Numbered from the stretch's first letter, positions 1-61,218 are shown. The stretch: DNA of 64,000 nucleotides from an uncultured Candidatus Saccharibacteria bacterium (GCA_964547425.1 CAZJNH010000004.1:7226-71225), one strand, 5' to 3'. The notes: generated by a model from the letters alone, not told the origin. Numbers and translations are program-made.

Positions 1-14
1 TGCTAACTAGGTTC

Positions 15-548
15 TTGAAGCGACAACAAGGGTTCACACTGTTAGAGCTTCTTATCGTCATCGTGATCATCGGTATCCTCGCGGTCATTATTGTTCCGGG
101 TCTGTCCAGCGGTCCGAAGAGGGCCCGTGACGCCCAGCGCAAAGCTGACATGCGCGGAGTCAAAAACGCTCTAGAGACTTTCTACAACGACAACAACTCC
201 TACCCGGTTCAGACCACTACTGCCAGTACAACCGGCTTGACGGCCACTGCGTTGATCAACGCTACCACCGGTATCGTCACCAACTACCTGCCGGCGTTGC
301 CTTGTGACCCGCGCTCTAGTGTTAAGACCACGACGACAACCTCAACTCTCTGTACCGACACCGTAGACGGTTCGAACACCCTGCGTTATCTGTACAAGTC
401 AGCCGCCGCTGGTGCTGCCTACCGCGTATGTGCCACCCTCGAAAACGCGCAAGATGGCGATGATGGTAACACTACTTCGAACGTTTCCGAAGGTTACTCG
501 GTCACCAGTATCAACGGTACTGCTCCTGGTACTCTCTGTACCACCTAA
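15..548 (+). CDS. pilA: type IV pilin (prepilin-type N-terminal cleavage/methylation domain), paralog 1
   Basis: The TTG-initiated leader is MKRQQG|FTLLELLIVIVIIGILA, with G at -1, F at +1 and E at +5. The body is Thr/Ser-rich (TTTASTTGLTATAL, KTTTTTSTL) with C-terminal Cys residues. It is about 75% identical to the ORF at 2896. Confidence 0.8.
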   Translation: MKRQQGFTLLELLIVIVIIGILAVIIVPGLSSGPKRARDAQRKADMRGVKNALETFYNDNNSYPVQTTTASTTGLTATALINATTGIVTNYLPALPCDPRSSVKTTTTTSTLCTDTVDGSNTLRYLYKSAAAGAAYRVCATLENAQDGDDGNTTSNVSEGYSVTSINGTAPGTLCTT

Positions 549-555
549 TCACTAG

Positions 556-594
556 CAACTAAACTAAAAACCTCTGCCACCCGCGGAGGTTTTT
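556..594. terminator. bidirectional rho-independent terminator between convergent pilA and GT-C genes
   Basis: The sequence aaaaacctctgccacccgcggaggttttt forms a GC stem flanked by A-run and T-run. Confidence 0.5.
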
Positions 595-599
595 AGTTT

Positions 600-2225
600 C
601 TAGTGGGTTCGGCGGAGCAAAATGTAGCTGTAGGCGCCGATCCGGGAAATGGTTTTGACACTGTAGTGGGGCTTAAGCTGGGAGAGCCCCTCGTCGTTCA
701 CGATCGCCGTTTTAATCTGGTCGTCTTTGGTCACATCGGCAACGTCAGCTAGCGTGCTGGCCTCGAAGACCGGTCGATCAGTGTAGGTTAAAACTACGAA
801 GGATGACAAGGTTTGCTGCTCAGTGGGGTAAACCACAATCGGGCCTGGTGGAGCATACTTAGCCTGCCTGGACAGTTCCGCTACTGGCTGGGCATTTTGA
901 ATATAGTCAGCCGTGTAGAGCCGGTACTGTGAGGCAAAGGGGTAGACCGAGACACCGACTAAGATCGCACCCGAGAGTACCAATCCCGCTTTGAGCCGTG
1001 AGGAGTCGAACTGAAGAAAGCAGAAGGCCACCGCTCCCGAGAGGACAAAGATAACCGCGAGCAACGCGGTGTTGGAGCTAACCGTAAACGGGCAGGTGTA
1101 AAGAGCTGCCAGACTAGCCGCGATTAAACCGAGGATGGGTACCAGCCGCTTGCCTCGAAAAGCGTTAACTACCGTGACCGCCACCATAATCGCCAGAGCC
1201 GGGTAGGCCGGCGCGGTGTAGTGGATGATCTTGGTTTTAAGCAGTGAAAAAAATACAAATACGACTACCGTCATCACTAGTAACAACCGCTGGGGGCCTT
1301 TTTTACGCCAGTTCTCCACGATGGAGCCGGCGAAGCCGAATGGGAGCAGGAAAATCCAGGGGTAGAGCCGCGAATACAGGATTTCTAAGTAGTAGCTATT
1401 GCCACGATTGACGATAAAACCGACAGAGGCGTTGGAGTTGTAAGGGTCAACCACCGAGTCTTTAATCCGTTTCCATATGTGGAACCCAAAATAACTGTCC
1501 CAAAACTGGTGTCCCCACTGCATGAGTTCGGCGAAGTGCCAGGGCGCGGTGATGGCAACCGCGATGCCGCCGGCGATCCACAAATGCTTGCTGCGTAAAT
1601 ACTCTTTAATTTCTCCGTTCCAAGCCCAGACAAGTGCCAAAATGACGGGGATCAGTAGGGCCGTTGGGCCTTTAGTAAGAGCGCCAAGGCCAATAGCCGC
1701 CCCGAGCAAATAATAGAATTTGGGGCTTTCTTTGAGCCGCAGGGCAAAGTAAAAGGCCAGCCACCAGAAGAAAATCATCGGGCCGTCGAGGCGGCCGATG
1801 CGGAAAACATGGATTAGGCCGAAAGAAGTTAAAGCGACGTAAGCAGCGGCTAAACCGACGGTTTTGTCGTAGAGCCGTTTGGCGATGGCGTAGGTCAAAA
1901 CAATCGTGCCAATACCGGCCAATCCAGAGGGCAAGCGCGACCAAAACTCGATTTGGCCGGGGAGGCGGATTAGCAGGGCCTTGAGCCAAATAATCAGAGG
2001 GGGTTTTTCGAACCAAGGTACCAAGGAGCCGTCGGGGTTAAAGCGCCAGAACAGCGTGATCCAGTTGCCCGTTCGGTTGATGTTGTGGGCGACTTGGTGG
2101 TAGATCATCTCGTCACCGTCAAAAAATCGGTAACTGCCGAGCTTATATAAATACGCGCCGGAGCCGGCCAGTACTAGTAGCAATTCCGCCCAGTATCTTT
2201 TGGCCAGCTTCAGCGCTGATTGCAT
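600..2225 (-). CDS. GT-C fold glycosyltransferase, family 39/83-like (protein O-mannosyltransferase / ArnT-like)
   Basis: A 541-aa polytopic membrane protein. The N-terminal loop carries the DGDE motif (FFDGDEMIYHQVAHN) typical of PMT/ArnT-type enzymes. Many TM helices. Confidence 0.65.
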   Translation of the reverse strand: MQSALKLAKRYWAELLLVLAGSGAYLYKLGSYRFFDGDEMIYHQVAHNINRTGNWITLFWRFNPDGSLVPWFEKPPLIIWLKALLIRLPGQIEFWSRLPSGLAGIGTIVLTYAIAKRLYDKTVGLAAAYVALTSFGLIHVFRIGRLDGPMIFFWWLAFYFALRLKESPKFYYLLGAAIGLGALTKGPTALLIPVILALVWAWNGEIKEYLRSKHLWIAGGIAVAITAPWHFAELMQWGHQFWDSYFGFHIWKRIKDSVVDPYNSNASVGFIVNRGNSYYLEILYSRLYPWIFLLPFGFAGSIVENWRKKGPQRLLLVMTVVVFVFFSLLKTKIIHYTAPAYPALAIMVAVTVVNAFRGKRLVPILGLIAASLAALYTCPFTVSSNTALLAVIFVLSGAVAFCFLQFDSSRLKAGLVLSGAILVGVSVYPFASQYRLYTADYIQNAQPVAELSRQAKYAPPGPIVVYPTEQQTLSSFVVLTYTDRPVFEASTLADVADVTKDDQIKTAIVNDEGLSQLKPHYSVKTISRIGAYSYILLRRTH

Positions 2226-2294
2226 CCCAAATAGTGTAGCAGATAACGAAAAACTCTAAGAACTAAGTACTAAACCCTAAGTAAGATTAAAGAT
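2226..2294. repeat. left arm of palindromic element (copy A)
   Basis: The sequence aaactctaagaactaagtactaaaccctaagtaagattaaag has its reverse complement at 2676-2742 and recurs at 12136-12269. Confidence 0.6.
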
Positions 2295-2630
2295 CTAAGA
2301 AGAATGTTTTTCGAGGATAGCACCGAAAATCCTAGTTAGACTCCGAGCCTCTTCGATCAGGGATTGGTCGGAACGTAACAGCCTTAACCAGAGAGCGCTT
2401 TCTTTTGCTTCTTTCCGACAGATCTTGATTCGCAGGATATAGTCCTTATTACTCAACGCTTCGACAGCTTCGATGAAATTGGCGGCTACGGAACCTGAGG
2501 ATCGCACCAGTTGCTTGGCATCCTCTCTCGCAACAATGGACTGAGGTTGTCTTTTAACTAGATCTCGACAATCTTGCGCGAACTTAAACGTCCTGTCTTC
2601 TAGTCCGTATTTTTGCTCGGTTGCTTGCAT
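2295..2630 (-). CDS. four-helix-bundle protein (23S rRNA intervening-sequence-protein family)
   Basis: 111 aa. The segment LVRSSGSVAANFIEA and the overall pattern match the small four-helix-bundle family often found inside intervening-sequence hairpins. It lies between the inverted arms of the element. Confidence 0.6.
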   Translation of the reverse strand: MQATEQKYGLEDRTFKFAQDCRDLVKRQPQSIVAREDAKQLVRSSGSVAANFIEAVEALSNKDYILRIKICRKEAKESALWLRLLRSDQSLIEEARSLTRIFGAILEKHSS

Positions 2631-2742
2631 TCAAGCATTTTAATTTGGTCTCCGAATGAAACTCAAGCATTACTTTAATCTTTATTCTTTGACCTTACTT
2701 AGTCCTTAGAGTTTAGTTCTTAGAGTTTGACCTGTTGCACCA
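2631..2742. repeat. right arm of palindromic element (copy A)
   Basis: The sequence ctttaatctt..acttagtccttagagtttagttcttagagttt is an imperfect reverse complement of the left arm. Confidence 0.6.
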
Positions 2743-2895
2743 GGTAAGTTTCTGCTACTATACTGATAGCGGTTACGTTTCAGATTTTTAGTTAATTCTT
2801 CATAAGAGGCGGACATCATTTCTCTAGGTAAGCGCAATCAAAACAGGAGGGGTTTTTGGCTGGAACATGGAATCAAACATGCCCACGGGTTTACC

Positions 2896-3405
2896 TTGCT
2901 TGAGCTGTTGATCGTTATCGTAATCATTGGAATTCTTGCAATTATCATTGTTCCCGGCCTCGCCAGCGGCCCAAAGCGCGCTCGCGACGCAAATCGTAAA
3001 TCTGACTTGCGCGGCCTCAAGAACTCCCTCGAAACTTTTTACAACGACAACAGCTCCTACCCGGTACAAACCACCACCGCCAGCACCACGTCCCTTACCG
3101 CCACCGCTTTACTCAGCTCTACTACTGGTGTTGTACCAAATTATCTGCCGGCTTTCGAGTGCGACCCGAGATCAAGCGTGAAAACCACCACCACCACCTC
3201 CACTCTTTGTGTCGACACGGTTGACGGCTCCAATACCCTGCGTTACCTCTATAAATCGGGTTCTTCAGGTTCTTCTTACCGCGTCTGCGCGACGCTTGAG
3301 AACGCTCAAGACGGAGACGATGGCAACACAACTACAAACGTGTCCGAGGGGTACTCCGTGGTCAGTGTGAACGGTACCGCTCCCGGCACCCTCTGCACTA
3401 CTTAG
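2896..3405 (+). CDS. pilA: type IV pilin paralog 2 (start codon anomalous)
   Basis: The product (…HAHG)FTLLELLIVIVIIGILAIIIVPGLASGPKRARDANRK… is collinear with paralog 1. An AGGAGG Shine-Dalgarno sits at 2845-2850. There is no in-frame ATG or GTG before the G|F cleavage site. The only in-frame candidates are CTG at 2860 or ATC at 2872, or the TTG at 2896 which would delete the leader. Confidence 0.7.
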   Translation: MLELLIVIVIIGILAIIIVPGLASGPKRARDANRKSDLRGLKNSLETFYNDNSSYPVQTTTASTTSLTATALLSSTTGVVPNYLPAFECDPRSSVKTTTTTSTLCVDTVDGSNTLRYLYKSGSSGSSYRVCATLENAQDGDDGNTTTNVSEGYSVVSVNGTAPGTLCTT

Positions 3406-4398
3406 ATGGCAAGATTGGGACGAATTTTCAAACACCTCCGCGACCAACGCGGTTTTACTTTTATTGAGGTCATAACCACATCTGTAATCATCGGCATCGG
3501 CTTTACGGCCATCTTTGAAACCTTTATTGCCGCCAACAACCTGAACCGCCAATCAGCTCAGTATCTGGCCGCGTCCAAGTTCGCCCAAACCGAGCTCGAC
3601 TACTACCGCAGCCAGCTGTTCACTACCGACGTCACAGCTACTAGCGAAACCGACAGCACAAGTTTACTTAGTGGCAGTACCGACGTTTCCGGCTCAATGC
3701 CCAGCTTACCTGGGGGCACCGCAATTAGCTGCTCCTCGGCGGCATCAGGCACCTTAGGCAAATACGCTTGCGTAACTGTCGCGGCTGTCGAGACTGGGAT
3801 GTACCGTGTCACAGTGTTTGTAGGTTACCGCGAAGGCGGGACGGCCGAAAGAACGGTGCAGTTGAGCACGTACGTCGCCCAAAACGGCGTCGGCACCAAT
3901 CCCACCGTCTGGAATTATTACTTTGATCATTCCGATGCAGGACCAGCGAGAAGTATATTCACCCAGCCATCAACCTGGACCAATTCCTCAAACGCGGTTG
4001 ACGGAAGCATAGCGACCGCCTCAACGAATTCAAGTGGTCCCAGCTCCTGTTCGGTGTCTCAGAACGGTTTCACCGAGAACGGATGTATGTTTATTTATGG
4101 AACTAATTCGCCGCCACAGGGCGGAACGGGTATTACAACGGTCAAGGCACGGATATACGGCTCTAACTCTACCGCATACATCTATCAAGGTTGTACGAGT
4201 GGAACTTCCTGTTGGGGGACGGCTTTGGCAACCCTAACAATGCCCAGCGGTAGTGCTACTTTTGGTAGCTGGGTTACATTATCTGCGCCCAGTGGGGGTT
4301 GGACTTGGCCGATTTTGAAACACCTCGTCTTGGGAGTAAACGGTTGCTCTACGGTTCCTTGCTCGATCTCAGAAGTTCAACTCCGGGTGTTCCAGTGA
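3406..4398 (+). CDS. minor pilin / pseudopilin (prepilin N-terminal domain), 330 aa
   Basis: The N-terminus is MARLGRIFKHLRDQRG|FTFIEVITTSVIIGIGF. The body is Ser/Thr-rich with a C-terminal Cys pair. Confidence 0.7.
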   Translation: MARLGRIFKHLRDQRGFTFIEVITTSVIIGIGFTAIFETFIAANNLNRQSAQYLAASKFAQTELDYYRSQLFTTDVTATSETDSTSLLSGSTDVSGSMPSLPGGTAISCSSAASGTLGKYACVTVAAVETGMYRVTVFVGYREGGTAERTVQLSTYVAQNGVGTNPTVWNYYFDHSDAGPARSIFTQPSTWTNSSNAVDGSIATASTNSSGPSSCSVSQNGFTENGCMFIYGTNSPPQGGTGITTVKARIYGSNSTAYIYQGCTSGTSCWGTALATLTMPSGSATFGSWVTLSAPSGGWTWPILKHLVLGVNGCSTVPCSISEVQLRVFQ

Positions 4399-5078
4399 TG
4401 AAATTACTGCGCAACCAACGCGGATTTACGTTGTTGGAGATGACAATTTCGACCGTTATGTTTAGTGTCTTGATCGTAGTTATCTCCGGGATGGTTTCGA
4501 TTGGAATCACCAATTTCGTGCAAGGAGATGCCTACAACCAAGCCCAAAACGAAGCCAATGTGATCCTAAATGACATTGTCAGCAACATTCACCGCGGCAG
4601 CTCGGCAATCAATGCATGCTCCAACTACAATGACGCTCATCGTACCGATTGTAGCTTTGCCCTTTCTGGCTTCACCGTAGATATTCCGGCGCTCGATTCC
4701 AGCGGTAATGTCCTATATACCGATAACACCCATCGCACCATTTGCACCAACGAAGTTGTCTACTTCGGTTATATTGGTACGGGAACGGGCGGTCCTCTTT
4801 ATCGCCGAAGTATTGAGAGCTCTGGGAGTCCCTCAAGTTGTACGGCAACCAACGCGACAGTCAACAGCTGCCAACCCGGAGGAGGTTGTAGTGCCACAGA
4901 CTCTACTTTGGCCAGAAACTTTTACGCGTTGACCGTCACCGACTGCGCCGGAAACGCGAGCCTGACTAACAAGACATGTTTGAAGCTCGTCCTGACCATC
5001 AAGAAAAAAGTCAGCGGCCGCACCATTACACTGAGTTATACCAGCTACGCTACCCTAAACAGTAAAGGAACCGTGTAG
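4398..5078 (+). CDS. minor pilin (prepilin N-terminal domain), PilW/FimT-like
   Basis: The ATG at 4398 overlaps the upstream stop (TGATG). The N-terminus is MKLLRNQRG|FTLLEMTISTVMF. The ORF-track start at 4299 is probably too far upstream. Confidence 0.65.
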   Translation: MKLLRNQRGFTLLEMTISTVMFSVLIVVISGMVSIGITNFVQGDAYNQAQNEANVILNDIVSNIHRGSSAINACSNYNDAHRTDCSFALSGFTVDIPALDSSGNVLYTDNTHRTICTNEVVYFGYIGTGTGGPLYRRSIESSGSPSSCTATNATVNSCQPGGGCSATDSTLARNFYALTVTDCAGNASLTNKTCLKLVLTIKKKVSGRTITLSYTSYATLNSKGTV

Positions 5079-7780
5079 TGAATAAATGGTTCAGCAGAGG
5101 AGTCTTGAGTGAGCCGGCCGCGGTCGTCATCTTCGCGTTTATGATTATTGCGCTGGCTGTTGGCACTGCCGCGACCAGCCAGTGGACTTACTCCCACAAA
5201 AGCGCTTACGACACCATGGCAGTTGCTGCCGCTCAGGCCGGGCTTGATCATGCCATCTTGAAGCTCAATACCGACGAGAACTACTTTTCTGGGCCTTTAG
5301 CCTCCGGCGATACTGGCACCGGAGCGGGCAATAGCGAGGTGTCCCTGGAGCAAACCCTCTCCTCCTCAGGTCAATTTACGATCACTTACATAATCGCCTC
5401 GGTGAGCGATGGTAGTGCTTACAGCCAAACAGGTTACGAAAAGAACGTAACGGTTCAAGGGCGTGTCTACCAGAACAGTACCGGTAAACTACTTTCCAAA
5501 AGGGATGTCAGCGCTGGTCTTGAAGTTGGCTCCCAAAATTTCCCTTATCAGGTCCAAGCCGGGTATGGGCATATCACACTTCAAGACATCTCCACAGTTA
5601 ATACCACAAATGCCAACGGCCGGATCTTTAGCAACGGTAGTATCCGTATAACCAACTCCGCCGTTTTAAAAGGCTACGAAGTTGGAGCTGGCGACTTCGA
5701 ATGCCCGCTCGCGGGTGGAGCGACTTACCCGACTGGCGGTGCTGACACCGGAGGCCGCTGCACAGCCGCCCAGCAAGTAGCCCTTCAGTCTTATGCTGGC
5801 TCTCCAGGTAGCAGTACTTTGCTTCATTTAGCTCATGGCGCGAGCGATATATCCGGAGGTTTTACTCCTAATCCACCAACCGATAATGTTGGAACCGTAG
5901 TCCCAATGCCTGGTCAAACAGGATACGGAACAAACTACCCCAGCTGGCCGGACGATAGCCGCAACGGTGTAATTAACTCCATCGACACAGCATTAACCAA
6001 CGCCCCTCAAAACTGCGGTAGCACCGCCAGCTGGGTTAGCTTAGGTAACATTCATATTACCAACGGGTTTAGCCTAAACGGCAGCTGTGTTCTAACCATC
6101 GGTGGCAATATTTGGGTCAATAACAATATAGCCAGTACTGCTGCAAACACCTTTATAGTTTCAGACACCGACAAGAACGGGAACCCAATCCGCCGTCCCT
6201 TGATTGTGATGGTTGATGGTGCCACAAGCTCGGGATTCTCAGCCACGGATAACATCCAGCTGTTTGATAACTTTCACGTTACGCCTAACAAGTACGGAAT
6301 GGGTATAATTTTTGAAAGTGAGTACTGTGGCAGTGGTTGTGATCCTAGTATCGGGCCGGCTATACCAAGCAGTACGTTTTATAGCTCTACTTCAAACAGA
6401 ACTATTGACATTAACACAGAGGCTACCCAGGCTGCGCCAACCAGACAGATTACTTTGGATCAATCGGTACTTTTTGCCAAATGGGGCTACGTTGGCTTTG
6501 CCAACAATTCTGGCGGCACAGACCATGCTATGGTCAGGTCGCCTTATTGCATTGACGCGGTTGGCCAAAGTGTAATATTTCCTACGGTGGTTACCGGTTC
6601 AGATCTACATACTATTGATTGCTCTTTTTCCGGCGCCAGCTTAACGGGCGCCTCATACGTCAACTTGGGTCAGCTAAGCGGCAAAGTCTTTAAGGTCGGC
6701 GGCTACAAAGAAACCGCCGGCGGGAACTACGCCACTATTAATGTCATCGATACCTCTGGCGATGCAAACGCCAATCCGGGTAACGGAGATGGTGCTGTTA
6801 CGGTTGGCACCGACGGATTCCCGGTTGGCCACTACTACGATCGAATCTTCCACTGCTCAAACATATACTGCACGTTCAAGACAAACGTGGGCGGCGGATC
6901 CTACTCAAATAGTACAGCCAATATTGGGAGTGACAACTTACCGATAACGACCGATTCGTACTCCTGGCTTGATGCGAGTCATTGTAATAACGTTTCTTGC
7001 TCGAGTAATGCTAACTCATCAGTAGATTCAGGAAGCGCTGTGGGTTACCACAGCGATACGGCTATTGGAAGCGATGGATTCCCAGTAATTGCTTATAATG
7101 ATAGCACCGGCGCTATTAAGGTTGCGCACTGCGGCAACGTGTCGTGTTCGAGCGGTAACACAATTACCCCCCTCGGAGCTGCGCTCGGGTTCTCTGTCTC
7201 AATCGCGAAGGGCAGCGATAATTTACCGGTAATCTCATACCTAGGGCCGTCAAGCACTTATCCTCTAAAAGTAATTCACTGTGGCAATGTTTTATGCTCA
7301 AGCGGAAATGTAACTACTTCCGTTGACCCCAATCCTAACGCCAGTCTCAGTGGAACAAGTATTACAATCGGTAGTGACGGTTTTCCAATCATTGCTTACT
7401 TTACCAGTGGCAACACTTTGAGGGTTGCGCATTGCGTGAACGTATCATGTTCGAGTGGAAATGGCATTGTGGCCGTTGGTTCTAATAATCTTTCATCGGA
7501 TCCGGTGATTATTATAGGTAGCGATAATTTACCGAAAATCTTCTCCTACAACTCTGCTGATAAGCAAATATTAGTTGCATATTGCACAAACGTAAGTTGT
7601 ACTACCTGGGTCCGCCCGTTCGCTGCCGTCGTAGGCGGACCACTTGATGTCAGCTCAGGATCGTGGACCCCACATATAGGGGTTGCACTTGGGAGCGAAG
7701 GTTTTCCAATACTCTTTTATTACGATAATGTCTTACGTCAGTTCAGACTTTTACGTTGCGTAACCCAAACCTGTACCTAG
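5078..7780 (+). CDS. PilX_N-type pilus-associated large protein (putative tip adhesin) with C-terminal tandem repeats
   Basis: The N-terminus has a TM helix plus an AVAAAQAGLDHA motif like the PilX N-terminal domain. The 900-aa product ends in seven repeats of about 50 aa each (…IGSDGFPVIAY…L+VAHCGNVSCSSGN…). Confidence 0.6.
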   Translation: MNKWFSRGVLSEPAAVVIFAFMIIALAVGTAATSQWTYSHKSAYDTMAVAAAQAGLDHAILKLNTDENYFSGPLASGDTGTGAGNSEVSLEQTLSSSGQFTITYIIASVSDGSAYSQTGYEKNVTVQGRVYQNSTGKLLSKRDVSAGLEVGSQNFPYQVQAGYGHITLQDISTVNTTNANGRIFSNGSIRITNSAVLKGYEVGAGDFECPLAGGATYPTGGADTGGRCTAAQQVALQSYAGSPGSSTLLHLAHGASDISGGFTPNPPTDNVGTVVPMPGQTGYGTNYPSWPDDSRNGVINSIDTALTNAPQNCGSTASWVSLGNIHITNGFSLNGSCVLTIGGNIWVNNNIASTAANTFIVSDTDKNGNPIRRPLIVMVDGATSSGFSATDNIQLFDNFHVTPNKYGMGIIFESEYCGSGCDPSIGPAIPSSTFYSSTSNRTIDINTEATQAAPTRQITLDQSVLFAKWGYVGFANNSGGTDHAMVRSPYCIDAVGQSVIFPTVVTGSDLHTIDCSFSGASLTGASYVNLGQLSGKVFKVGGYKETAGGNYATINVIDTSGDANANPGNGDGAVTVGTDGFPVGHYYDRIFHCSNIYCTFKTNVGGGSYSNSTANIGSDNLPITTDSYSWLDASHCNNVSCSSNANSSVDSGSAVGYHSDTAIGSDGFPVIAYNDSTGAIKVAHCGNVSCSSGNTITPLGAALGFSVSIAKGSDNLPVISYLGPSSTYPLKVIHCGNVLCSSGNVTTSVDPNPNASLSGTSITIGSDGFPIIAYFTSGNTLRVAHCVNVSCSSGNGIVAVGSNNLSSDPVIIIGSDNLPKIFSYNSADKQILVAYCTNVSCTTWVRPFAAVVGGPLDVSSGSWTPHIGVALGSEGFPILFYYDNVLRQFRLLRCVTQTCT
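6780..7780 (+). repeat. 7 x ~150-bp in-frame tandem repeats inside the PilX-like gene
   Basis: The HC(x)NV(S)C(S/T) motif recurs at about 6851, 6981, 7130, 7278, 7430, 7579 and 7751. Each is preceded by IGSD(G/N)(F/L)P. Confidence 0.7.
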
Positions 7781-7802
7781 AGAACTTCACAGGTTCTCAA
7801 TC

Positions 7803-7811
7803 TGGTATAAT
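7803..7811 (+). promoter_or_regulatory. extended -10 promoter (TGGTATAAT) upstream of pilM
   Basis: TGGTATAAT matches the TGn + TATAAT consensus, 30 nt before the pilM ATG. The same 9-mer lies upstream of rmlB at 51411. Confidence 0.5.
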
Positions 7812-7841
7812 CAAAAGTGCTAATGCTATAGCAGATACCGA

Positions 7842-8900
7842 ATGAAAATCCCATTAGTGTACAGGCAGGGCGCTGTTTTTGGCTGTGACATTGGCAGCCA
7901 GACGGTGAAAGTAGTTGAATTGGGCGGAACTTATAAGAAGCCCAAGGTTGTTGGGTATGGCTACGCGCCGTTCGACCCAAAGACCATGGTTAAGGGCGCC
8001 ATCGCTAACCCCGAGGCACTGGCCAAGACGGTTAAAGCCCTGATTACCAAGCCTCAAACCGGGCAGATCAATGCCAAGAGGGTGGTGTCATCGATCCCCA
8101 TCTCCCAAGTCTTCGTTCGAACGCTGACTTTACCGCCGATGGACGCGGCCGATTTGGCCCAAGCCATCCAGCTGGAGGCCGAGCAGTACATTCCGGTGCC
8201 GGTAAGGGACCTATACATCGACCACGAAATCCTATCCCATAAAGTGGTGGGCAAGGAGTCAAAACTCGAAATCCAGATGGTGGCAGCTCCGCGCGCTATT
8301 ATTGACTCCTACATTCGCCTGTTCGACGCTTTGGGTTTGTTTACCGAGGTCATCGAGATCGGCCAGTCGGCCATCCTGCGCAGTTTGTTTTATAACGCCG
8401 GTGACATTACCCTTCTGGCGGACTTCGGTTCGGAGCTAACCGACTTTGTCGTCAGCGACCACGCTATCCGTTTAAGCTCCACTGTACCTGTAGGCGGAAA
8501 CAAATTGACTCAAGCCCTGCAAAAAGAGCTCAAGGTCACCGCCCAGCAGGCGGATGAGATCAAAAAACGTTACGGAATCGGTGAAAGCGGCCTGCGAAAG
8601 GAAATCCTAAAAGCGCTTAAAGATCCGTTAGATAGTTTGACCCACGAGATCTCCAAAGCCATCAAGTACTACCACGACCGCAGCGAAAACAACCAGTCAA
8701 TCCAGAAGATAGTTTTGTCCGGCGGCAGCGCCTATTTGCCCGGCTTAATGGAGTATCTAACCCAAACCTTCCGGCTGCCGGTAGTAATCGACGACCCGTG
8801 GCAAAACGTTAAGTTCGAGAAACTGCCGCAGCCATCGCCGCAGGAGAGGGCAATGTATACGACAGCGGTCGGGCTTGGGATTTTGGGGTTAAAGACATGA
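7842..8900 (+). CDS. pilM: type IV pilus assembly ATPase-like protein PilM
   Basis: Actin/FtsA-like fold. The N-terminus is VFGCDIGSQTVKVVEL, and the length of 352 aa is typical. Confidence 0.8.
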   Translation: MKIPLVYRQGAVFGCDIGSQTVKVVELGGTYKKPKVVGYGYAPFDPKTMVKGAIANPEALAKTVKALITKPQTGQINAKRVVSSIPISQVFVRTLTLPPMDAADLAQAIQLEAEQYIPVPVRDLYIDHEILSHKVVGKESKLEIQMVAAPRAIIDSYIRLFDALGLFTEVIEIGQSAILRSLFYNAGDITLLADFGSELTDFVVSDHAIRLSSTVPVGGNKLTQALQKELKVTAQQADEIKKRYGIGESGLRKEILKALKDPLDSLTHEISKAIKYYHDRSENNQSIQKIVLSGGSAYLPGLMEYLTQTFRLPVVIDDPWQNVKFEKLPQPSPQERAMYTTAVGLGILGLKT

Positions 8901-9436
8901 TTAATTTATTGCCGCCGGAAATTAAGGGCCAAATCGCTTTTTCTAAACGCAACGCCGCGCTAGTGCGGATCATTGCCGCGTTCGTCGCCTCCAGCGGAAT
9001 ATTGGGCGCCCTGCTGGTTTTTGGCTCCAAGAGCCTGGATGCCCAGGTGGTATCCGTCCAGCACGACTACGACAACCAGAAAAAGTCCTCGCCCGACAAC
9101 GGCAGTATCACCGCCCTGCAAGCCGTTAACCGCCGGTTAGCCATTATCCAGTCGCTTAACAACTCAAAACACCATTACTCGGCGTTGTTGCGAAGCCTTA
9201 GCGCCGCCATGCCAAGGGGCGCATACTTTTCGGTGATCGACCTGGCTGGAGACGACAAGCCGCTTAAATTAAGCATTCAGACCACCTCCTACTCGATCGC
9301 GACCAAAGTAAAGGATGCATTACTTAAATCGAAGCGGGTCGCGGGGGTAGACCTTGAAAGTATTGCCAAGGCCGACGCCGGCGGCGGCTACACGGTAGCG
9401 GTCACCATCGCTTTAAAACCGGGAGCTTCAAAGTGA
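8897..9436 (+). CDS. pilN: type IV pilus assembly protein PilN
   Basis: The MINLLPPE N-terminus is characteristic of PilN. It has a single TM helix and overlaps pilM by 4 nt. Confidence 0.75.
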   Translation: MINLLPPEIKGQIAFSKRNAALVRIIAAFVASSGILGALLVFGSKSLDAQVVSVQHDYDNQKKSSPDNGSITALQAVNRRLAIIQSLNNSKHHYSALLRSLSAAMPRGAYFSVIDLAGDDKPLKLSIQTTSYSIATKVKDALLKSKRVAGVDLESIAKADAGGGYTVAVTIALKPGASK

Positions 9437-9978
9437 GCCCGCGCCAATTCTTCTTCGGCTTAATTTCCCTTACCATCGTGGTTTTAATTGGCGGAGGCTA
9501 CTTCTTTTTCCATGCCACAAATAAATATAGCCAGGGTAATAAAAAACTGGACAGATTGCTGGCAGACATTAAGGTGCTGCAAGACCAGTCGCAGCGCCAA
9601 CGCCAATTAAAACACGATTACGACCATAAAGTGGTACCTAAACTACCGTTACTCGACCGGGCTCTGCCCAAAGATAAAGACCAGGCCTTAGCCACCCAGC
9701 AAATCAGCGATCTGGCGGCCAAAAATGGCGTCGCGTTCACGAACATCCAGTTCACCCCCAGCCAAGGCCCGTCTGCTACCAGCCAGACCCAATCCGCCAA
9801 CGGCGTTTTGGCGTTGCCGATCAGCTTTAGCACTACCGGTAGTTATAACCAAATCCAGGAGTTTTTGCAGGGTATCGAAAACTTTCCCCGGGAGTGTGAC
9901 ATCGTCAACGTAAGCTTGAGCGCGTCGGAGAATACCGTGTCGGCCAACTTAATCGTAAATATGTATCTACTGCCATGA
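9433..9978 (+). CDS. pilO: type IV pilus assembly protein PilO-like
   Basis: It sits at the position of pilO, with an N-terminal TM helix and a coiled-coil segment. Confidence 0.55.
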   Translation: MSPRQFFFGLISLTIVVLIGGGYFFFHATNKYSQGNKKLDRLLADIKVLQDQSQRQRQLKHDYDHKVVPKLPLLDRALPKDKDQALATQQISDLAAKNGVAFTNIQFTPSQGPSATSQTQSANGVLALPISFSTTGSYNQIQEFLQGIENFPRECDIVNVSLSASENTVSANLIVNMYLLP

Positions 9979-10241
9979 CTTTTAAACTGAAACTCAGTTT
10001 GCCGAAGGTCGATTTCCAGCGCTACCTGGGGCCAGGAATTTCGATTCTGGTTCTGCTGGCTTTTATGTACGTGGCGTTCTTGATCCGCGGCAGCCAAAAC
10101 CCGCAGGCCGATCCGGTGTACTTAAAACAGCAGATCGACAAGTTCGACCAAACCAAGATCCAGATCAAAACCGCCCAGCTTAACGCTCTGGGCAAAACGC
10201 CGGCCTCGGTTTCGCCGGGACGCAACCCGTTTAAACCTTAG
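9975..10241 (+). CDS. small membrane protein, possible PilP-like pilus assembly component
   Basis: An 88-aa protein with one TM helix, overlapping pilO by 4 nt. Assigned by operon context only. Confidence 0.3.
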   Translation: MTFKLKLSLPKVDFQRYLGPGISILVLLAFMYVAFLIRGSQNPQADPVYLKQQIDKFDQTKIQIKTAQLNALGKTPASVSPGRNPFKP

Positions 10242-12135
10242 CCGGCTTCGCTAGATTCTTTTGCGCCCAAGTATGGTGGCGGACTATTGCCCGCGCTCCA
10301 ACGGCGCTCCACAGCTGAACCTTGTTCATCGGCCCTTCGGCCCTCGATTGGTCGTTGTAAAAGTGGGCTTTGCCGTTTTTGTGGTAGTGAAGCTCCGTCG
10401 CGCCGATTTGGTTGATGGCCGACAAACTGGCTTCGGCGGTTTTTACTAAGGTTTCTTGGAGCAGCTGGCAGGTTTTTTCGCTAAACCGACTGGACTCGAG
10501 CTGGCGGACTAGACCGGCGGTGACAAAGGCGGTTTGTTTGGTCCAGCTGACGCGGCCGTGATAATCCAGGGTGGAGTAACCGTCTTTGGCACCAACCAGC
10601 GTCGGACCGGCCGGAGTGTAAAAGTATTTTTCACTTAACAACCGGCGGCAGAAACTGTCGAGGTCAGCCTCGGTCGGTTCACCGTAAAACAGGTCGTAAG
10701 CTTCGTCTGTGTGGTTCACCTCCAGCGTGCGGTACTGCAGTTTGCCATCTTCGGATTTGATGTCGTAAAGCGCCAGCGCCATGGCGGTCTCCCCGTCCCG
10801 GTTAATAAAGCGGTAGAGGTCTTTGACCTTTGACCATTTGGCGACGAGATGGGTTAGGGTCGCTTCCGGAAAACCAAAGAACTGGGCATGCTGTTTGATC
10901 AGCTCGAGTGCCTGGGGGTAAAACACCGCGTTAACGTCGTACGGCGCGATGATCGGGTGGACCATCTTGAAGGCCCGTTCGCTGTCACGCCAGTTGCCGG
11001 CGCCGTAGTACTCTTCGCGCCGGTGGCGGCGAAACAGTTCGGGAATTTTTTTGAAGGTTATCAGGTCGTTGGCGGCGGCTTCGGATACCAGATAATGAGC
11101 TGAGCGCTTTAACCTTTCTTGGTCGTGCTCCGAGAAGTCGCTAGGCTTAATCCGCTGCAACCCCAAAATGTAGTGTGGCTCGATGTCGATCATATTGCGG
11201 ATGATGTACATTTCCTGGACCTTTTTGACCAGATCCTGCATTAGCCGGCCAAGGCGGCTTTCGCGCTCCAGCAAATCGTCGAGGCTACCAGGGAACTCAT
11301 CGGCCTGCCGGCTTTTTTCGGCCTCCAGCTCGCCGGTGATGTTTTCGTGCCAACCGATGCCGACGGGATTAACCAGCGCCAAAGCTTTGCTGTACATATA
11401 TCGCCTAACATTAAGCAGGAGGTCGCCTTCACCTAGGTCCGCGGATTCCATCCAGTCGCGAGGAAACACCGTGCCGTAGTCGAAACCGCTGGTACGGTCG
11501 TTGCGGATTAAAAAATCTATCTCCCCAGACAGCCGGTTCATCAATCCGCCGCGATCGGCCGACGAGTTCACTCGGGTTTTGGCTACCGCGTGGCTAACTT
11601 CCGGCCGCGGCGGTTTGGGGTTGTCGGTCGTCAGCTTGAAGCTGATCGGTTTAGCGGTTCGGCTTTTTAGCCAGTAGCCATGGTGTGACTGCTGGCGGTG
11701 AACCTCGACCGATTTGTCTAAAGTGATTTTAACCCCGTACCAGGTGTTTTCGTAGAACCGGCGGTAGGTTAATTCAAAACCCCGCTCGGTGGCCTCGCCG
11801 CCGACGAAGTGCGGCAAAATGGCATCCGGATGCCGCCGCATTACCTGGGCAAAGGTTGGTTTCGGTTTGCCCGGCGGCTCAATCAGCCCGCGTACTCGCA
11901 GCATCGGCCCGATAGCCGGATCGTGGAAAAAAAGTTTCGAGTGTTTGAAGCGACCGCTAATTTTGACTTCGCCGCTGGCCAGCAGTTTTACATCTTCAAC
12001 CTCAAAGTCAGCTTGGTTTAATCCAACGGTTGCAAAGTAGAGGTGGTTGTCGGGTCCGGCGATCCGCAGCTGCTCATGCTCATCGATGTCGATATAGTAG
12101 GCGGACTCTAACCAAAGATTGTCATCAATTTTCAT
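10231..12135 (-). CDS. large conserved hypothetical protein (possibly (alpha/alpha)6-barrel glycoside-hydrolase-like)
   Basis: 634 aa with no signal peptide. The fold assignment is weak and rests on the C-terminal region only. Confidence 0.3.
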   Translation of the reverse strand: MKIDDNLWLESAYYIDIDEHEQLRIAGPDNHLYFATVGLNQADFEVEDVKLLASGEVKISGRFKHSKLFFHDPAIGPMLRVRGLIEPPGKPKPTFAQVMRRHPDAILPHFVGGEATERGFELTYRRFYENTWYGVKITLDKSVEVHRQQSHHGYWLKSRTAKPISFKLTTDNPKPPRPEVSHAVAKTRVNSSADRGGLMNRLSGEIDFLIRNDRTSGFDYGTVFPRDWMESADLGEGDLLLNVRRYMYSKALALVNPVGIGWHENITGELEAEKSRQADEFPGSLDDLLERESRLGRLMQDLVKKVQEMYIIRNMIDIEPHYILGLQRIKPSDFSEHDQERLKRSAHYLVSEAAANDLITFKKIPELFRRHRREEYYGAGNWRDSERAFKMVHPIIAPYDVNAVFYPQALELIKQHAQFFGFPEATLTHLVAKWSKVKDLYRFINRDGETAMALALYDIKSEDGKLQYRTLEVNHTDEAYDLFYGEPTEADLDSFCRRLLSEKYFYTPAGPTLVGAKDGYSTLDYHGRVSWTKQTAFVTAGLVRQLESSRFSEKTCQLLQETLVKTAEASLSAINQIGATELHYHKNGKAHFYNDQSRAEGPMNKVQLWSAVGARAIVRHHTWAQKNLAKPAKV

Positions 12136-12269
12136 CGTTATACTTAGGGTAACACTTCAAACTCTAAGAACTAAACTCGAAGTACTGAGTAAGTTTCAAG
12201 AGCAAAGTTCAAAGACTTAAAACTTATATCTTTAATCTTACTTAGAGTTTAGAACTTAGCTCTTAGCTC
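12136..12269. repeat. palindromic element copy B (arms adjacent, no cargo)
   Basis: The sequence caaactctaagaactaaactcgaagtactgagtaag … ctttaatcttacttagagtttagaacttagctcttag has the same arm sequences as 2226-2742. Confidence 0.6.
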
Positions 12270-13298
12270 TTACAGCAATGAGGCTTGGTCGGAGTTTTCG
12301 CTGGGGTTTTTTAAGCCGAGGTGGCTATAGGCTTTTTTGGTGACTTTGCGGCCGCGGGGGGTGCGTTCGAGAAAACCGACTTTAAGTAAGTAAGGCTCAT
12401 AGACGTCTTCGATGGTCGAGCGCTCTTCGGAGCACAATGCGGCGATGGTGTCGACACCGACCGGACCGCCGCCATGGTTTTTGATGACAGCCTCGAGCAA
12501 ATGGCGGTCAACCTCCTCTAGACCAAGCGCGTCAATTTTGAGCAAATCGAGAGCTTTACTCGCCAAATCAGCGGTAATTTTACCGTCACCCTTCACCTGG
12601 GCGTAATCCCGGGCACGGCGGAGCAGGCGGTTGCCGACGCGGGGGGTCAGGCGGGAGCGGTCGGCCAGAAGTTTGGCCGCCTCCGGTTCGATGTCGGCTT
12701 TGAGGATCCGGGCGGAGCGGCCGATGATCTTTTCGATTTCAGCCGGTTGATAATAGTTTAGTCGATGGACCATGCCGAAACGGTCGCGCAAAGGGCCGGA
12801 GATCGCCCCGGCTTGAGTTGTGGCACCGATGATGCTGAATTTTGGCAGGTCAAGGCGCAAGGACTTAGCCGAAGGGCCTTTGCCGAGCACCAGGTCGAGG
12901 CTGAAATCTTCCATCGCCGGATAGAGAATTTCCTCGACCGTTTTGGGCAAACGGTGGATTTCGTCGATGAATAAAATTTGGCCTTCCTCGATGCTGGTTA
13001 AAATCGAGGCCAGATCGCCGGCGCGCTCGATAGCGGGGCCGGAGGTAACTTTTATTGGGGTATTCATTTCGTTGGCGACGACGTGGGCGAGAGTAGTTTT
13101 ACCTAAGCCCGGTGGGCCGTACAGCAAAACGTGGTCGACCGGTTCCCCCCGTCCTTTTGCGGCAGCAATTGCCAGCTGGAGGTTGTCTTTGATGGTGTCC
13201 TGCCCAATGTAATCTTTGAAAGTATGCGGCCGCAGGGTTTCTTCGAGCTGGACCTCGCCGACTTCGATTTCTCCGGGCGTTGAGATACGCTCAATCAT
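12270..13298 (-). CDS. ruvB: Holliday junction branch migration helicase RuvB
   Basis: AAA+ protein with Walker [10 protein letters not shown], and RuvB-wide similarity including the C-terminal winged helix. Confidence 0.95.
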
Positions 13299-45065: not shown

Positions 45066-45180
45066 AGCGGCTTCGCCTTCTCCGCTTCGCTACGACGAAC
45101 TCCCTGCTTCGCAGCCGAGTTCTCATCTCGGCCTGAAATCAAAAAGGTGTGGCAATGACGCGAGGTCATTTCCACACCTT

Positions 45181-45484
45181 TGGCTCCGGGGGCGAGATTC
45201 GAACTCGCGACCAATTGATTACACCGATCCCACTGTTTCCAATGAGGGTGGACTATATCATCATCCGCCGGTGGGCGGAGCGGGGCGCTTCCTCTTACGA
45301 GTACTCTCTTGCGAGATAGTCTCTGAACCTTACCCTCGCCTTTAAGAAAAAGACGAGGGGCTTGGCTGCTGATTACCTTATTCTAGGAACTTAGGTTTCC
45401 AGCAATTCACCCCGTTTTTCAAACCCGATTACTCGGGCAAGCTGCCTTTTGACAGTCAACTGCTCTACCGCTGAGCTACCCCGG
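45181..45484 (-). tRNA. tRNA-Asn(GUU) interrupted by a group I intron after nt 36
   Basis: Joining exons 45451-45484 and 45181-45221 gives TCCGGGGTAGCTCAGCGGTAGAGCAGTTGACTGT|TAATCAATTGGTCGCGAGTTCGAATCTCGCCCCCGGAGCCA. This has U1-A72, G73 and the loop CUGUUAA, as in E. coli tRNA-Asn. A rho-independent terminator lies at 45140-45180 on the minus strand. Confidence 0.75.
45222..45450 (-). ncRNA. group I self-splicing intron (229 nt)
   Basis: The 5' exon ends in U and the intron ends in G. P1 pairs the exon CUGU with intron GCAG. The P (AAUUGCUGGAAAC), Q (AAUCAGCAGCC), R (GUUCAGAGACUA) and S (GAUAUAGUCC) elements are all present, and GACUA pairs with UAGUC to form P7. Confidence 0.75.
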
Positions 45485-45514
45485 AACGCCGAGTTATTTT
45501 ATCTTTTTTACGGC

Positions 45515-45826
45515 TTACGGTAAAGAATTGCTTACTCCAGCCTCAACTTCACGATGGCAGTTCGCGCAGAGAAGGATGCACTTATCAAGCTCCTTGAGTA
45601 TCTTTTCCCAGGATCGGGTATAACCTTTGGCGCCAATCCCAAAGTTTTTCTCCTTCGGATATAGATGATGTATTTCCAAGGCACCTTGATAATAGCCATA
45701 CCCGCAAGCCAGACATTTACCCCCCAACTCAGCGACAGCCATAGCTTTTATTTTCTTACGACGTTTACTGACGGCTTGAACCATATACTTGCGGCGGTCA
45801 GCGTAAGTTCGAGTCTCTTTTCTCAC
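45515..45826 (-). CDS. HNH endonuclease (free-standing, possible homing endonuclease)
   Basis: CLACG…LEIHHLYPKE…N…LLCANCH is a canonical HNH zinc-finger nuclease motif. AT-rich. It ends 30 nt upstream of the tRNA-Asn 5' end on the same strand. Confidence 0.7.
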   Translation of the reverse strand: MRKETRTYADRRKYMVQAVSKRRKKIKAMAVAELGGKCLACGYGYYQGALEIHHLYPKEKNFGIGAKGYTRSWEKILKELDKCILLCANCHREVEAGVSNSLP

Positions 45827-45865
45827 ATACTAATTATATCGAGCAAACGAACGAAAAGCGAACGA

Positions 45866-46969
45866 TTATTCTAGCGATTTTTTGGCTTGGGGTAAAGGAG
45901 TTGCGGCTTGCTCGACGGCGCGATAATAGATTTCTTCGTAGCCGTCGGTCATCCGTTGGGCGTTAAAGTTCGTTAGTGCGTGTTCCCGGCAGGCTTTGCG
46001 GTTAATCCGATGGATTTTGCCGATCGCTTCCGCCATGCCTTCCTCGTCGTGGACCACGTAGCCGGTTTTGCCATCAACAATAATCTCCGGAATCGATCCC
46101 ATGTTAAACGCCACGACTGGAGAGCCGCAGGCCATCCCTTCGATCAGAGTAAGCCCAAAGGGTTCGGGCCAAGTGACCGGATGAAGCATACACAAAGCGC
46201 CGCTCATCAGCTTGGTTTTTTCGGCGTCATCGACCTCTCCGACCCATTTAACCTGGCCGTTAAGGTAAGGCTTCACATAGGTGTGGAAGTACTCCATATC
46301 GGCCGGGACGTCTTCGTTTAGCTTGGCGGCGATAATTAACGGGATTCCTAAGGCTTGGGCAACCGCGATGGCGTGGTGGGTGCCTTTTTCCATACAGATA
46401 CGCCCGACAAACAGTAAATAGTTGCCGGCTTTTTGGCCAAACGGATAATGCTGCATCGACAGGCCGTTATAAACCGTACCAGCGGTTTTGATCCGGGTGT
46501 GATGGGCCGTCTGGTTGTGTGAAATCGATACCAGATGAGGGCGGTTGAGTTCCTCGTATACCCGGTCGGTTCCGGCCTCGATCGGCCCGTGCAAGGTCAT
46601 CACCACCGGAGTTTCGGCGATGTTTGCCACCGGCAAACTTAGCATTATGTGGGCATGGTCATGGATAATGTCGAACTCTTTCTGATGTTTGTAGACCAAC
46701 CCAATATTTAACGCTGTGTAGGAGTTAACGCCGTAAAGTTCTTTGACTTTGTCTAGGCGCAAGGCGTGGGGATGAACATACACCAGTTTGGCGGAAGTAA
46801 GGGAGTCGCCGCTGGCAAATAAGGTAACTTCGTGGCCGCGGCGGACCAACTCTTCAGTTAACTCATAAACGACGCGTTCGGTCCCCCCATATTTCTGGGG
46901 CGGAACGCGTTCGACCAACGGGGCGACCATAGCGATTTTTAGTCGACGAGGCTGGGATTCTTTAGGCAT
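45866..46969 (-). CDS. glycosyltransferase family 4 (GT-B)
   Basis: N-terminus KIAMVAPLVERVPPQKYGGTERVV. The C-terminal region resembles the nucleotide-binding domain of retaining GT4 enzymes. Confidence 0.75.
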   Translation of the reverse strand: MPKESQPRRLKIAMVAPLVERVPPQKYGGTERVVYELTEELVRRGHEVTLFASGDSLTSAKLVYVHPHALRLDKVKELYGVNSYTALNIGLVYKHQKEFDIIHDHAHIMLSLPVANIAETPVVMTLHGPIEAGTDRVYEELNRPHLVSISHNQTAHHTRIKTAGTVYNGLSMQHYPFGQKAGNYLLFVGRICMEKGTHHAIAVAQALGIPLIIAAKLNEDVPADMEYFHTYVKPYLNGQVKWVGEVDDAEKTKLMSGALCMLHPVTWPEPFGLTLIEGMACGSPVVAFNMGSIPEIIVDGKTGYVVHDEEGMAEAIGKIHRINRKACREHALTNFNAQRMTDGYEEIYYRAVEQAATPLPQAKKSLE

Positions 46970-47205
46970 ATCAGCGCATTATAACCGTCCAAGCATAGCT
47001 ATCAACTGTGCATTTTTCCAACTCCTAGCCATCTCACCACTCTCATCCAAGTCGTCGCTGCGGATCAGTATTCTACTCCGTGGCTAAGTGCTTAGCAGAC
47101 TGGATTAGCCGCAGGACATCGACAGCCTGCACTTTATCGAGATATTTCAGATCAAAATCATAGTACCGCAGAAATCTGCGGTACCTGGCTCTGATTTTGC
47201 GCCGG

Positions 47206-47350
47206 TTCACCTGGCTCCCCCTCCGGATATTTTTGCCAGTTGAGCAGCCGTAACTGCGGCCGAATCCTTTTCTTTGAGCGACTCGTAGTAGATCATGTCG
47301 TAGATCTTCGACCTAGTGCTCCTCTCGGCCTTGGTTTTTAATTTTGCCAT
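47206..47350 (-). pseudogene. small ORF downstream of lexA, possibly frameshifted in a G5 run
   Basis: A GAGGGGGTG Shine-Dalgarno precedes 47 codons ending inside GGAGGGGGAG. The +1 frame continues for a further 40 protein-like codons (VNRRKIRARYRRFLRYYDFDLKYLDKVQAVDVLRLIQSAKHLATE). Confidence 0.25.
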
Positions 47351-47379
47351 TTTTTCACCCCCTCTTTTTTACTTACTTT

Positions 47380-48003: not shown

Positions 48004-48033
48004 TGCTTGCCTCCTGCTAGTTCTAAAAAATAA

Positions 48034-48057
48034 TGTTCGCCTTTAGTATGGCGAACA
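48034..48057. promoter_or_regulatory. candidate LexA operator (TGTTCGCC-N8-GGCGAACA)
   Basis: A perfect 8-bp inverted repeat 31 nt upstream of the lexA start. The GTTC/GAAC half-sites resemble the Gram-positive SOS box. Confidence 0.5.
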
Positions 48058-48093
48058 AAACCCGTAACGTCAAGACTTTTATGCTTTCTTGGA

Positions 48094-49902: not shown

Positions 49903-49984
49903 AACGTTTTAAGTATATCTGAAACCCCGATCACGATGAATCATTTTGTCCTTGATTGACAAACCGGCCTGGCAATCGTAAGGT

Positions 49985-51371: not shown

Positions 51372-51387
<16 letters not shown>
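50557..51387 (+). CDS. rmlD: dTDP-4-dehydrorhamnose reductase
   Basis: N-terminus MKVVYTGANGQLG and an SDR-extended fold. GC-rich. Confidence 0.8.
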
Positions 51388-53699
<2,312 letters not shown>

Positions 53700-61191: not shown

Positions 61192-61218
61192 ATCGCTAGA
61201 TTATACTTGGTTGGTGAG

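Follow-up and report, generated by a model that had tools for sequence, protein, structure and literature searches.

An ArnT-fold glycosyltransferase within a type IV pilus locus of Saccharimonadia is a candidate pilin O-glycosyltransferase

What does a membrane glycosyltransferase modify when its gene lies between two type IV pilin genes? The question is raised by a 64,000-nt stretch of DNA from an uncultured Candidatus Saccharibacteria bacterium (GCA_964547425.1 CAZJNH010000004.1:7226-71225; hereafter the window), in which a 541-residue GT-C glycosyltransferase (hereafter GT; 600..2225, minus strand) is encoded between two major-pilin paralogs, pilA-1 (1..548, plus strand) and pilA-2 (2860..3405, plus strand). 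In cultivated Saccharibacteria, type IV pili play a central part in motility, survival and attachment to the host. An earlier reading of the same DNA (the original prediction) took these genes for a pilin O-glycosylation module built around a PMT/ArnT-like enzyme, PMT denoting a protein O-mannosyltransferase. In our best explanation, GT has become, within a single small Saccharimonadia clade, an accessory gene dedicated to the type IV pilus locus. Synteny makes O-glycosylation of the pilins the best explanation of its function, one that we hold with slightly more confidence than doubt.

Family calls on the open reading frames (ORFs) of the window were made by Pfam and NCBIfam profile searches. 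GT is, as first described, a polytopic GT-C protein: it matches PMT_2 (2e-23) and, in part, PMT (PF02366; 4e-10, 40 bits, model positions 60-226 of 245), and has approximately 13 transmembrane helices and a C-terminal alpha/beta extracytoplasmic domain (approximately residues 456-541). The DGDE motif noted originally (residues 36-39; F-D36-G37-D38-E39) directly follows the first transmembrane helix (TM1). No MIR, PMT_4TMC, TPR or Wzy_C (PF04932) domain was detected with Pfam at E<=0.01. The best NCBIfam match is ArnT (NF009784; 2e-28), with 99 bits against an equivalog cutoff of 567, and among solved structures the sequence search found a single relative, Cupriavidus ArnT (5EZM; 5e-10, phmmer, residues 23-437).

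Structural comparison leads to the same family. The AlphaFold2 (AF2) model of GT has a mean predicted local distance difference test score (pLDDT) of 89.3 and a predicted template modelling score (pTM) of 0.90. In a Foldseek search of the PDB, ArnT (5F15) ranks first over the full length of the protein (template modelling (TM) score 0.70, E 1e-16, 570 columns), followed at lower TM scores by STT3/AglB/PglB (0.49-0.57), Emb (approximately 0.47) and Pmt1/2/4 (0.30-0.46); ranks 1-39 (E to approximately 3e-2) are all GT-C enzymes (ArnT, STT3/AglB/PglB, ALG, Pmt, Emb, Aft and PimE). The alignment of GT with 5EZM pairs its DE, FEKPP, TKG, R and Y-x-x-P segments with catalytic and phosphate-binding segments of ArnT. 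Among 29 homologs, D147, K185, W229 and Y336 are invariant and D38, E39, K74 and R253 nearly so; following the published ArnT structure, we take D38, E39, E73/K74, D147, K185, R253 and Y336 to be the ArnT catalytic and phosphate-binding positions. GT thus shows the hallmarks of the GT-C superfamily (a polytopic protein of GT-C fold with an acidic motif in the first extracytoplasmic loop) and those of the ArnT fold (full-length similarity and conserved catalytic/phosphate-binding residues). Orthology to ArnT was not supported, given the score of 99 against 567 bits, the pilus-locus context and the lack of arn genes in the window. As modelled, GT is an active-looking ArnT-fold (GT83-like) GT-C enzyme; it is neither a GT39 PMT nor an ArnT ortholog, so that of the earlier 'PMT/ArnT-like' label the second half stands and the first does not. 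Two distant homologs of 882 residues (P0019 and P0020) have the PMT_2 GT-C domain fused to Wzy_C, the domain of O-antigen ligase and PglL-type enzymes.

The evidence that ties GT to pili is positional. GT is convergent with pilA-1, as the original prediction had it, and ends 51 nt from the pilA-1 stop codon; between the two stops lies a hairpin (561..599; 17-nt arms, 94% complementary, 5-nt loop, flanking A-run and T-run), which, to judge by its sequence, is likely to act as a bidirectional terminator for the two genes. Orthologs (42-55% identity) are found in the equivalent slot, with the major pilins on one side and the minor-pilin operon on the other, so that five loci from different samples carry the arrangement (the window, L002, L003, L092 and L176). 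In L002, L003 and L092 the orthologs are 52-55% identical to GT and convergent to the major pilin, approximately 45-50 nt away; the order in L002 is pilC-pilA, then GT with a four-helix-bundle (4HB) gene, then a minor pilin, and in L003 pilB-pilC-pilA, then GT, then four minor pilins.

L176 (GCA_964478595.1), the closest relative genome (DnaK 88% identical), encodes pilB-pilC-pilin-pilin, two tandem GTs on the opposite strand, a pilA-2-like pilin, proteins of 334, 232 and 879 residues, and pilM-N-O. Its GT paralogs (9180-12364) are 44% and 42% identical to the window GT and 46% identical to each other, and keep the key residues; they stand beside three divergent pilin paralogs. The L176 copies suggest that GTs and pilins diversify together: the window has one GT with pilins that bear a Cys-bounded insert, the sister genome two GTs with different pilins. 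A more distant relative, GCA_038230095.1 (L094; DnaK 77%), is syntenic on both sides (pilB-pilC-pilA-pilM-N-O ... ruvBA ... APH) and has no GT and no minor pilins in the slot between pilA and pilM. Where GT is present, its linkage to the pilus locus persists through approximately 45-58% protein divergence and through duplication in place.

The wider family behaves differently. An HMMER search of 1.84 billion representative proteins returned 15,032 homologs, only two of which belong to GT's clade (625 and 414 bits); the next homolog, outside the clade, scores 214 bits. Across 80 GTDB loci of the wider family, mostly from Patescibacteria (26-37% identity to GT), a pilin motif was found within 1 kb in none, genuine pilins within 3 kb in two, and PilB/C/M within 10 kb in three. 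These counts led us to reject pilus linkage as a family-wide trait of ArnT-like GT-C enzymes in Patescibacteria. Conversely, no GT homolog was present within 5 kb in any of 80 related pilin loci from metagenomes, and a scan of metagenome contigs with the GT clade alignment gave no match. The shared slot, the unlinked wider family and the score gap together indicate that pilus linkage is a specific, retained trait of a rare clade. The nearest non-pilus homologs (approximately 31% identity; L004 1521-7318 and L006 3744-12229) lie beside giant TIG/Big/He_PIG surface proteins, in L006 also near dTDP-rhamnose genes. These neighbours recall human TMEM260, a GT-C O-mannosyltransferase specific for IPT/TIG domains (PMC10214176), and by this analogy protein acceptors may be common in the GT family.

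Both genes flanking GT encode pilins of the type originally proposed, with a class III signal peptide (G/F-T-L-x-E, the slash marking the cleavage site), a hydrophobic helix and a small globular domain. PilA-1, whose ORF as listed spans 15..548, matches N_methyl (PF07963; E=4.6e-10) and TIGR02532 (1.8e-8) and has a GspG/PilA-type N-terminus. The gene begins 1 nt ahead of the window; the protein reconstructed from it (MLTRFLKRQQG/FTLLE..., 182 residues) is 100% identical to a public protein (P0030) on an NCBI contig. The mature N-terminus of PilA-2 is the same, and no ATG, GTG or TTG occurs in frame before its G/FTLLE cleavage site. The TTG at 2896 used in the public call (169 residues) lies inside the mature pilin and cuts off the leader and the first mature residues. 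In frame, the sequence reads ...L(CTG 2860)EHGIKHAHG/FTLLE, with a Shine-Dalgarno AGGAGG at 2845-2850, 9 nt before the CTG, which from this sequence context is the likely start.

The mature parts of pilA-1 (27-548) and pilA-2 (2884-3405) are 86% identical in amino acids and 73% in nucleotides, and differ by 93 synonymous and 25 nonsynonymous codon changes. The nonsynonymous rate (dN 0.10), with a saturated synonymous rate (dS), means that both copies have long been kept under purifying selection, an argument for the expression of pilA-2 in spite of its unusual start. The divergence points either to an ancient duplication or to a copy acquired from a relative, in each case under strong purifying selection. 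We considered whether pilA-2 could be a pseudogene or silent cassette; the dN and dS values, the good Shine-Dalgarno sequence and an independent Logan assembly identical over window positions 251-8344 make this unlikely.

Both pilins carry Thr tracts: TTTASTTGLTATAL and KTTTTTSTL in PilA-1, and TTTASTTSLTATAL and KTTTTTSTL in PilA-2. Their globular parts contain 22-23% Thr, with a longest Ser/Thr run of 7, whereas 73 related pilins have a mean of 15% and a longest run of 5; the window pilins are the most Thr-rich of 80 compared. The AF2 model of PilA-1 (pLDDT 76.5) is a pilin 'lollipop', with helix alpha-1 (residues 14-65) followed by a beta domain. Its low-confidence coil comprises a Thr tract (66-81), an insert of approximately 20 residues (105-130) that holds the second tract, and the C-terminal tail. 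The tracts have pLDDT values of 52-62, and the model is consistent with the tracts and the tail being exposed loops. Both the high Thr content and this placement speak for the pilins as plausible acceptors.

The Cys-bounded, Ser/Thr-rich insert and a C-terminal NGTAP...C tail are common to seven GT-linked pilins, and related Saccharimonadia pilins are without both; the N-G-T-A-P...C extension (PilA-1 residues 172-180) is invariant in six pilins of one alignment and is also present in PilA-2. A strict tie between GT and these two features was rejected, as it held in the seven pilins and failed in those of L176, which have neither. The tail contains an N-x-T sequon and a conserved Thr, and is a candidate modification site or candidate disulfide-anchored tail.

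The host bears on what GT could modify. DnaK in the window is 76-81% identical to Candidatus Saccharimonadales/Saccharimonadia proteins, and the nearest named relatives of the pilins and of GT are also from Saccharibacteria or Patescibacteria. Patescibacteria are generally described as lacking lipid A; with a Saccharimonadia host and lipid A presumed absent, the canonical acceptor of ArnT is not expected. The original prediction had proposed that clustering of GT with lipid A transferases would count against a protein substrate. ArnT is indeed the best match, but in a group described as lacking lipid A this clustering loses its force.

The model that we favour is as follows. The N-terminal helix would hold each prepilin in the cytoplasmic membrane, leaving the globular domain outside the cell. 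GT would lie in the same membrane with its DE loop and C-terminal domain also outside, and its active site, formed by the D38/E39 loop after TM1 together with K74, D147, K185, R253 and Y336, would face the outer leaflet. From a polyprenyl-phosphate-monosaccharide donor it would pass the sugar on to the hydroxyl groups of Ser/Thr residues in pilin loops that are exposed and flexible, ahead of subunit polymerisation. As candidates for the attachment sites we consider the alpha-beta loop 'QTTTASTTGLTATAL' and the Cys-bounded insert 'KTTTTTSTL', and possibly also the C-terminal tail. The modification might serve to mask pili from phages, hosts or proteases. A broader proposition, to which we give even chances, is that an ArnT-fold (GT83-like) enzyme was recruited by a small Saccharimonadia clade and dedicated to the O-glycosylation of its type IV pilins; its family would be the third in pilin glycosylation, after PglL/TfpO and TfpW, and GT copy number and variable pilin loops would co-diversify.

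Several points weigh against pilin glycosylation by GT. We infer the acceptor from the gene neighbourhood, and the nearest characterised relative of GT, ArnT, modifies a lipid rather than a protein. All five loci belong to one lineage, and the linkage may reflect a single ancestral insertion kept by synteny; most family members in Patescibacteria are unlinked to pili, and probably modify envelope glycans by default. For this genome, a lack of lipid A is presumed from general descriptions of the group. Neither an undecaprenyl-phosphate (Und-P)-sugar synthase (GT2) nor a GtrA/SMR-type flippase was found in the locus or among window ORFs of >=150 residues. Pilins are generally Ser/Thr-rich, and the gap is modest (18.6% vs 14.9% Thr; p approximately 0.01, for sequences that are non-independent). 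P0032, a pilin linked to a GT ortholog, has 9% Thr only, and neither the Thr tracts nor the Cys-bounded insert are conserved across GT-linked pilins, those of L176 having no insert. As judged from the sequences compared, the Thr tracts are lineage-specific and no signature of the system. The earlier argument from the tracts is therefore weakened, while the idea of a pilin-dedicated GT-C enzyme remains, on the strength of the five loci, the best supported.

Of the other explanations, the one that retains most weight, although we consider it unlikely, is that GT transfers a sugar from polyprenyl phosphate to a non-protein envelope component (for example a polysaccharide of the cell wall, a glycolipid or a polymer like teichoic acid); that its gene lies among pilus genes would then be an accident of history, which synteny has preserved in a small clade. 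Such roles are what ArnT, GtrC-type and YfhO-type GT-C enzymes perform, the closest characterised homolog and structure is the lipid-modifying ArnT, 80 of the 80 wider-family loci are without a pilin within 1 kb, and the pilus-linked cases all come from one lineage. An enzyme of this kind could also serve a separate envelope-glycan cluster in the same window (45866-63961), which contains three GT4 genes, rmlD, an rmlB-like gene, a UDP-glucose dehydrogenase, an FkbM methyltransferase, a flippase-like LPG_synthase_TM protein, a 658-residue DUF7657/DUF7654 protein and a 636-residue protein without a family; no GT2 was detected in this cluster. An accident of position accords poorly, however, with a slot that has been kept across five samples despite protein divergence and that includes an in situ tandem duplication, with the absence of GT where pilM directly follows the pilin, and with the sharp score gap between the GT clade and other homologs.

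It is less probable still that the acceptors are the minor pilins or the large repeat protein encoded downstream of pilA-2, rather than the major PilA paralogs. In the window this block (3406-7780, plus strand) comprises a 330-residue minor pilin with a PilV/GspH-like N-terminus and a Ser/Thr-rich sequence (3406..4398), a second minor pilin (4398..5078; 226 residues as called in the public assembly, MKLLRNQRG/FTLLEM) and a 900-residue pilus-associated protein with an N-terminal transmembrane helix and no Pfam family (5078..7780). GT accompanies a minor-pilin block in every locus (proteins of 133, 152 (called as 124), 440 and 530 residues in L003; 334, 232 and 879 residues in L176), and both are missing from L094; moreover, the minor pilins are Ser/Thr-rich and the Thr tracts of the major pilins are not conserved. 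Yet GT always adjoins a major pilin, convergent and approximately 45-50 nt away, the most extreme Ser/Thr tracts are on the major pilins of the window, and the precedents TfpO and TfpW act on major pilins.

The 900-residue protein, which has an 879-residue counterpart in L176, is a candidate tip or adhesin subunit, possibly beta-propeller-like, and a candidate alternative acceptor for glycosylation. Its C-terminal part (6900-7780) consists of approximately 7 tandem repeats of approximately 50 residues, 'IGSDGFPvIAY...kVaHCgNVSCSSGN', with paired Cys; the repeat region has no Pfam or NCBIfam match.

That GT is an actinobacterial-like PMT (GT39) transferring mannose from polyprenyl-phosphate-mannose to the Thr-rich tracts we regard as very improbable, since the partial 40-bit PF02366 match and the DE motif in loop 1 are set against the lack of MIR and PMT_4TMC domains, TM scores of 0.30-0.46 to Pmt1/2/4 as opposed to 0.70 to ArnT, higher sequence scores against ArnT models, and a transferred sugar that is not inferable.

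The remainder of the locus can be described more briefly. The 4HB gene (2295..2630, minus strand; 111 residues, 23S_rRNA_IVP/TIGR02436 family, TIGR02436 2.4e-15) lies upstream of GT on the same strand. The GT/4HB pair is divergent from pilA-2, so that GT is not 'directly upstream of pilA-2', as had been stated. The 4HB gene is in the same place in L002 and missing in L003 and L176, and is probably outside any glycosylation function. Imperfect inverted repeats of 57 nt (2251-2307 and 2672-2728; 75% complementary) surround it and give this member of the 23S rRNA intervening-sequence (IVS) protein/Avd-like family a cassette-like look. A role in a diversity-generating retroelement (DGR/Avd) was rejected, since the neighbourhood contains no reverse transcriptase and pilA-1 differs from pilA-2 mainly by synonymous changes scattered along the whole gene. 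PADLOC found no defence-system match for GT or the 4HB protein. Beyond the minor-pilin block, pilM (7842-8900, plus strand; TIGR01175 3e-55), a pilN-like gene (8897-9436, plus strand) and pilO (9433-9978, plus strand; PilO 6.3e-11), all three with synteny in L094 and L176, form the pilus assembly platform (7842..9978).

Near and within the distal envelope-glycan cluster three further features were observed. A group I intron (45180-45490, minus strand; Rfam RF00028, 100.5 bits) interrupts the anticodon loop of a tRNA gene uncalled by ARAGORN, and just upstream of it is a small ORF (approximately 45540-45830, minus strand) with HNH-like CxxC...CxxC motifs. An RmlA-like ORF (53909-54562) matches only positions 109-285 of 286 of the RmlA model, the N-terminal third being missing as listed; an alternative start, a frameshift or a truncated gene could each account for its shortness.

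Glycosylation of Saccharibacteria pilins has so far been predicted from pilin sequence alone, with no enzyme proposed (PMC11623550), and in the literature we found no link of ArnT, GT39 or GT-C enzymes to pilins in the candidate phyla radiation (CPR). A locus-linked candidate enzyme makes the question testable. If GT does glycosylate pilins, ArnT-family enzymes would be retargetable from lipid to protein acceptors, and a third transferase family would join PglL/TfpO and TfpW in pilin glycosylation. This would be the first system identified that glycosylates the pili CPR episymbionts rely on. Co-diversification of GT copy number and pilin loops would then resemble the pilin groups of Pseudomonas aeruginosa. 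Such a finding would also suggest how these ultrasmall bacteria might alter or disguise their pili in defence against phages or hosts, a role that TfpO and TfpW have in Pseudomonas (PMC11841053). Were pilin glycosylation refuted, the locus would still show envelope-modifying GT-C genes embedding in pilus operons.

Comparison with known systems places GT among them as follows. ArnT (GT83; the Und-P-4-amino-4-deoxy-L-arabinose (L-Ara4N):lipid A transferase; 5EZM/5F15) is its best full-length match in sequence and structure, including the C-terminal domain. Identity is 17-18%, however, and GT lies in a pilus locus rather than in an arn operon, and in a Saccharimonadia host, where a lipid A acceptor is not expected. 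GT39 enzymes (yeast Pmt1/2, actinobacterial Pmt) share the GT-C fold and a DE motif in loop 1, and modify Ser/Thr-rich regions of secreted proteins from polyprenyl-phosphate-mannose; unlike them, GT has no MIR and PMT_4TMC domains, and its structural similarity to them is much weaker (TM 0.30-0.46). PglL/TfpO (PilO) work on the outer side of the inner membrane, where they attach glycans to pilin Ser/Thr, and tfpO lies beside pilA (PMC11841053). These enzymes belong to the Wzy_C (PF04932) fold and family, which is absent in GT, and transfer preassembled undecaprenyl-diphosphate (Und-PP)-oligosaccharides, not single sugars from Und-P carriers.

The original prediction named only PglL/TfpO-type enzymes as known pilin systems and expected GT to represent a distinct mechanism. 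That account was incomplete, as TfpW of P. aeruginosa group IV is a GT-C enzyme encoded immediately downstream of pilA, which puts D-arabinofuranose (D-Araf) on several pilin Thr/Ser from a polyprenyl-phosphate donor (bioRxiv 10.1101/2020.04.19.049825; PMC11841053); the mechanism class is therefore already known. TfpW has 646 residues, 11 predicted transmembrane helices, a C-terminal TPR, a DDX motif and an Emb-like YX6PFX7P motif, and the genomes that encode it carry genes for the D-Araf donor (dprE1/E2 and others; bioRxiv 10.1101/2020.04.19.049825). Like TfpW, GT is a polytopic GT-C enzyme with an acidic motif in the first extracytoplasmic loop, encoded beside a major pilin gene in the window, L002, L003, L092 and L176. 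The acceptor sites of TfpW are several Thr/Ser in the alpha-beta loop region of the pilin, and a monosaccharide is transferred from polyprenyl phosphate.

The differences are as clear. GT has 541 residues, an ArnT fold, a DGDE motif and a small alpha/beta C-terminal domain; a search with Y-x6-P-x5-8-P (the EmbC form with an approximation of the TfpW form) gave no match in GT, which, without TPR, DDX and proline motif, is set apart from TfpW by the latter's described features. Further, tfpW is co-directional with and downstream of pilA, whereas GT is convergent to pilA-1; no donor genes were found nearby, and no DprE1/E2-like genes among the window ORFs. Nonetheless, GT would by analogy parallel TfpW in the outline of its function, and we regard the locus as a plausible lineage-restricted case of a pilin-adjacent GT-C glycosyltransferase, a class known from TfpW.

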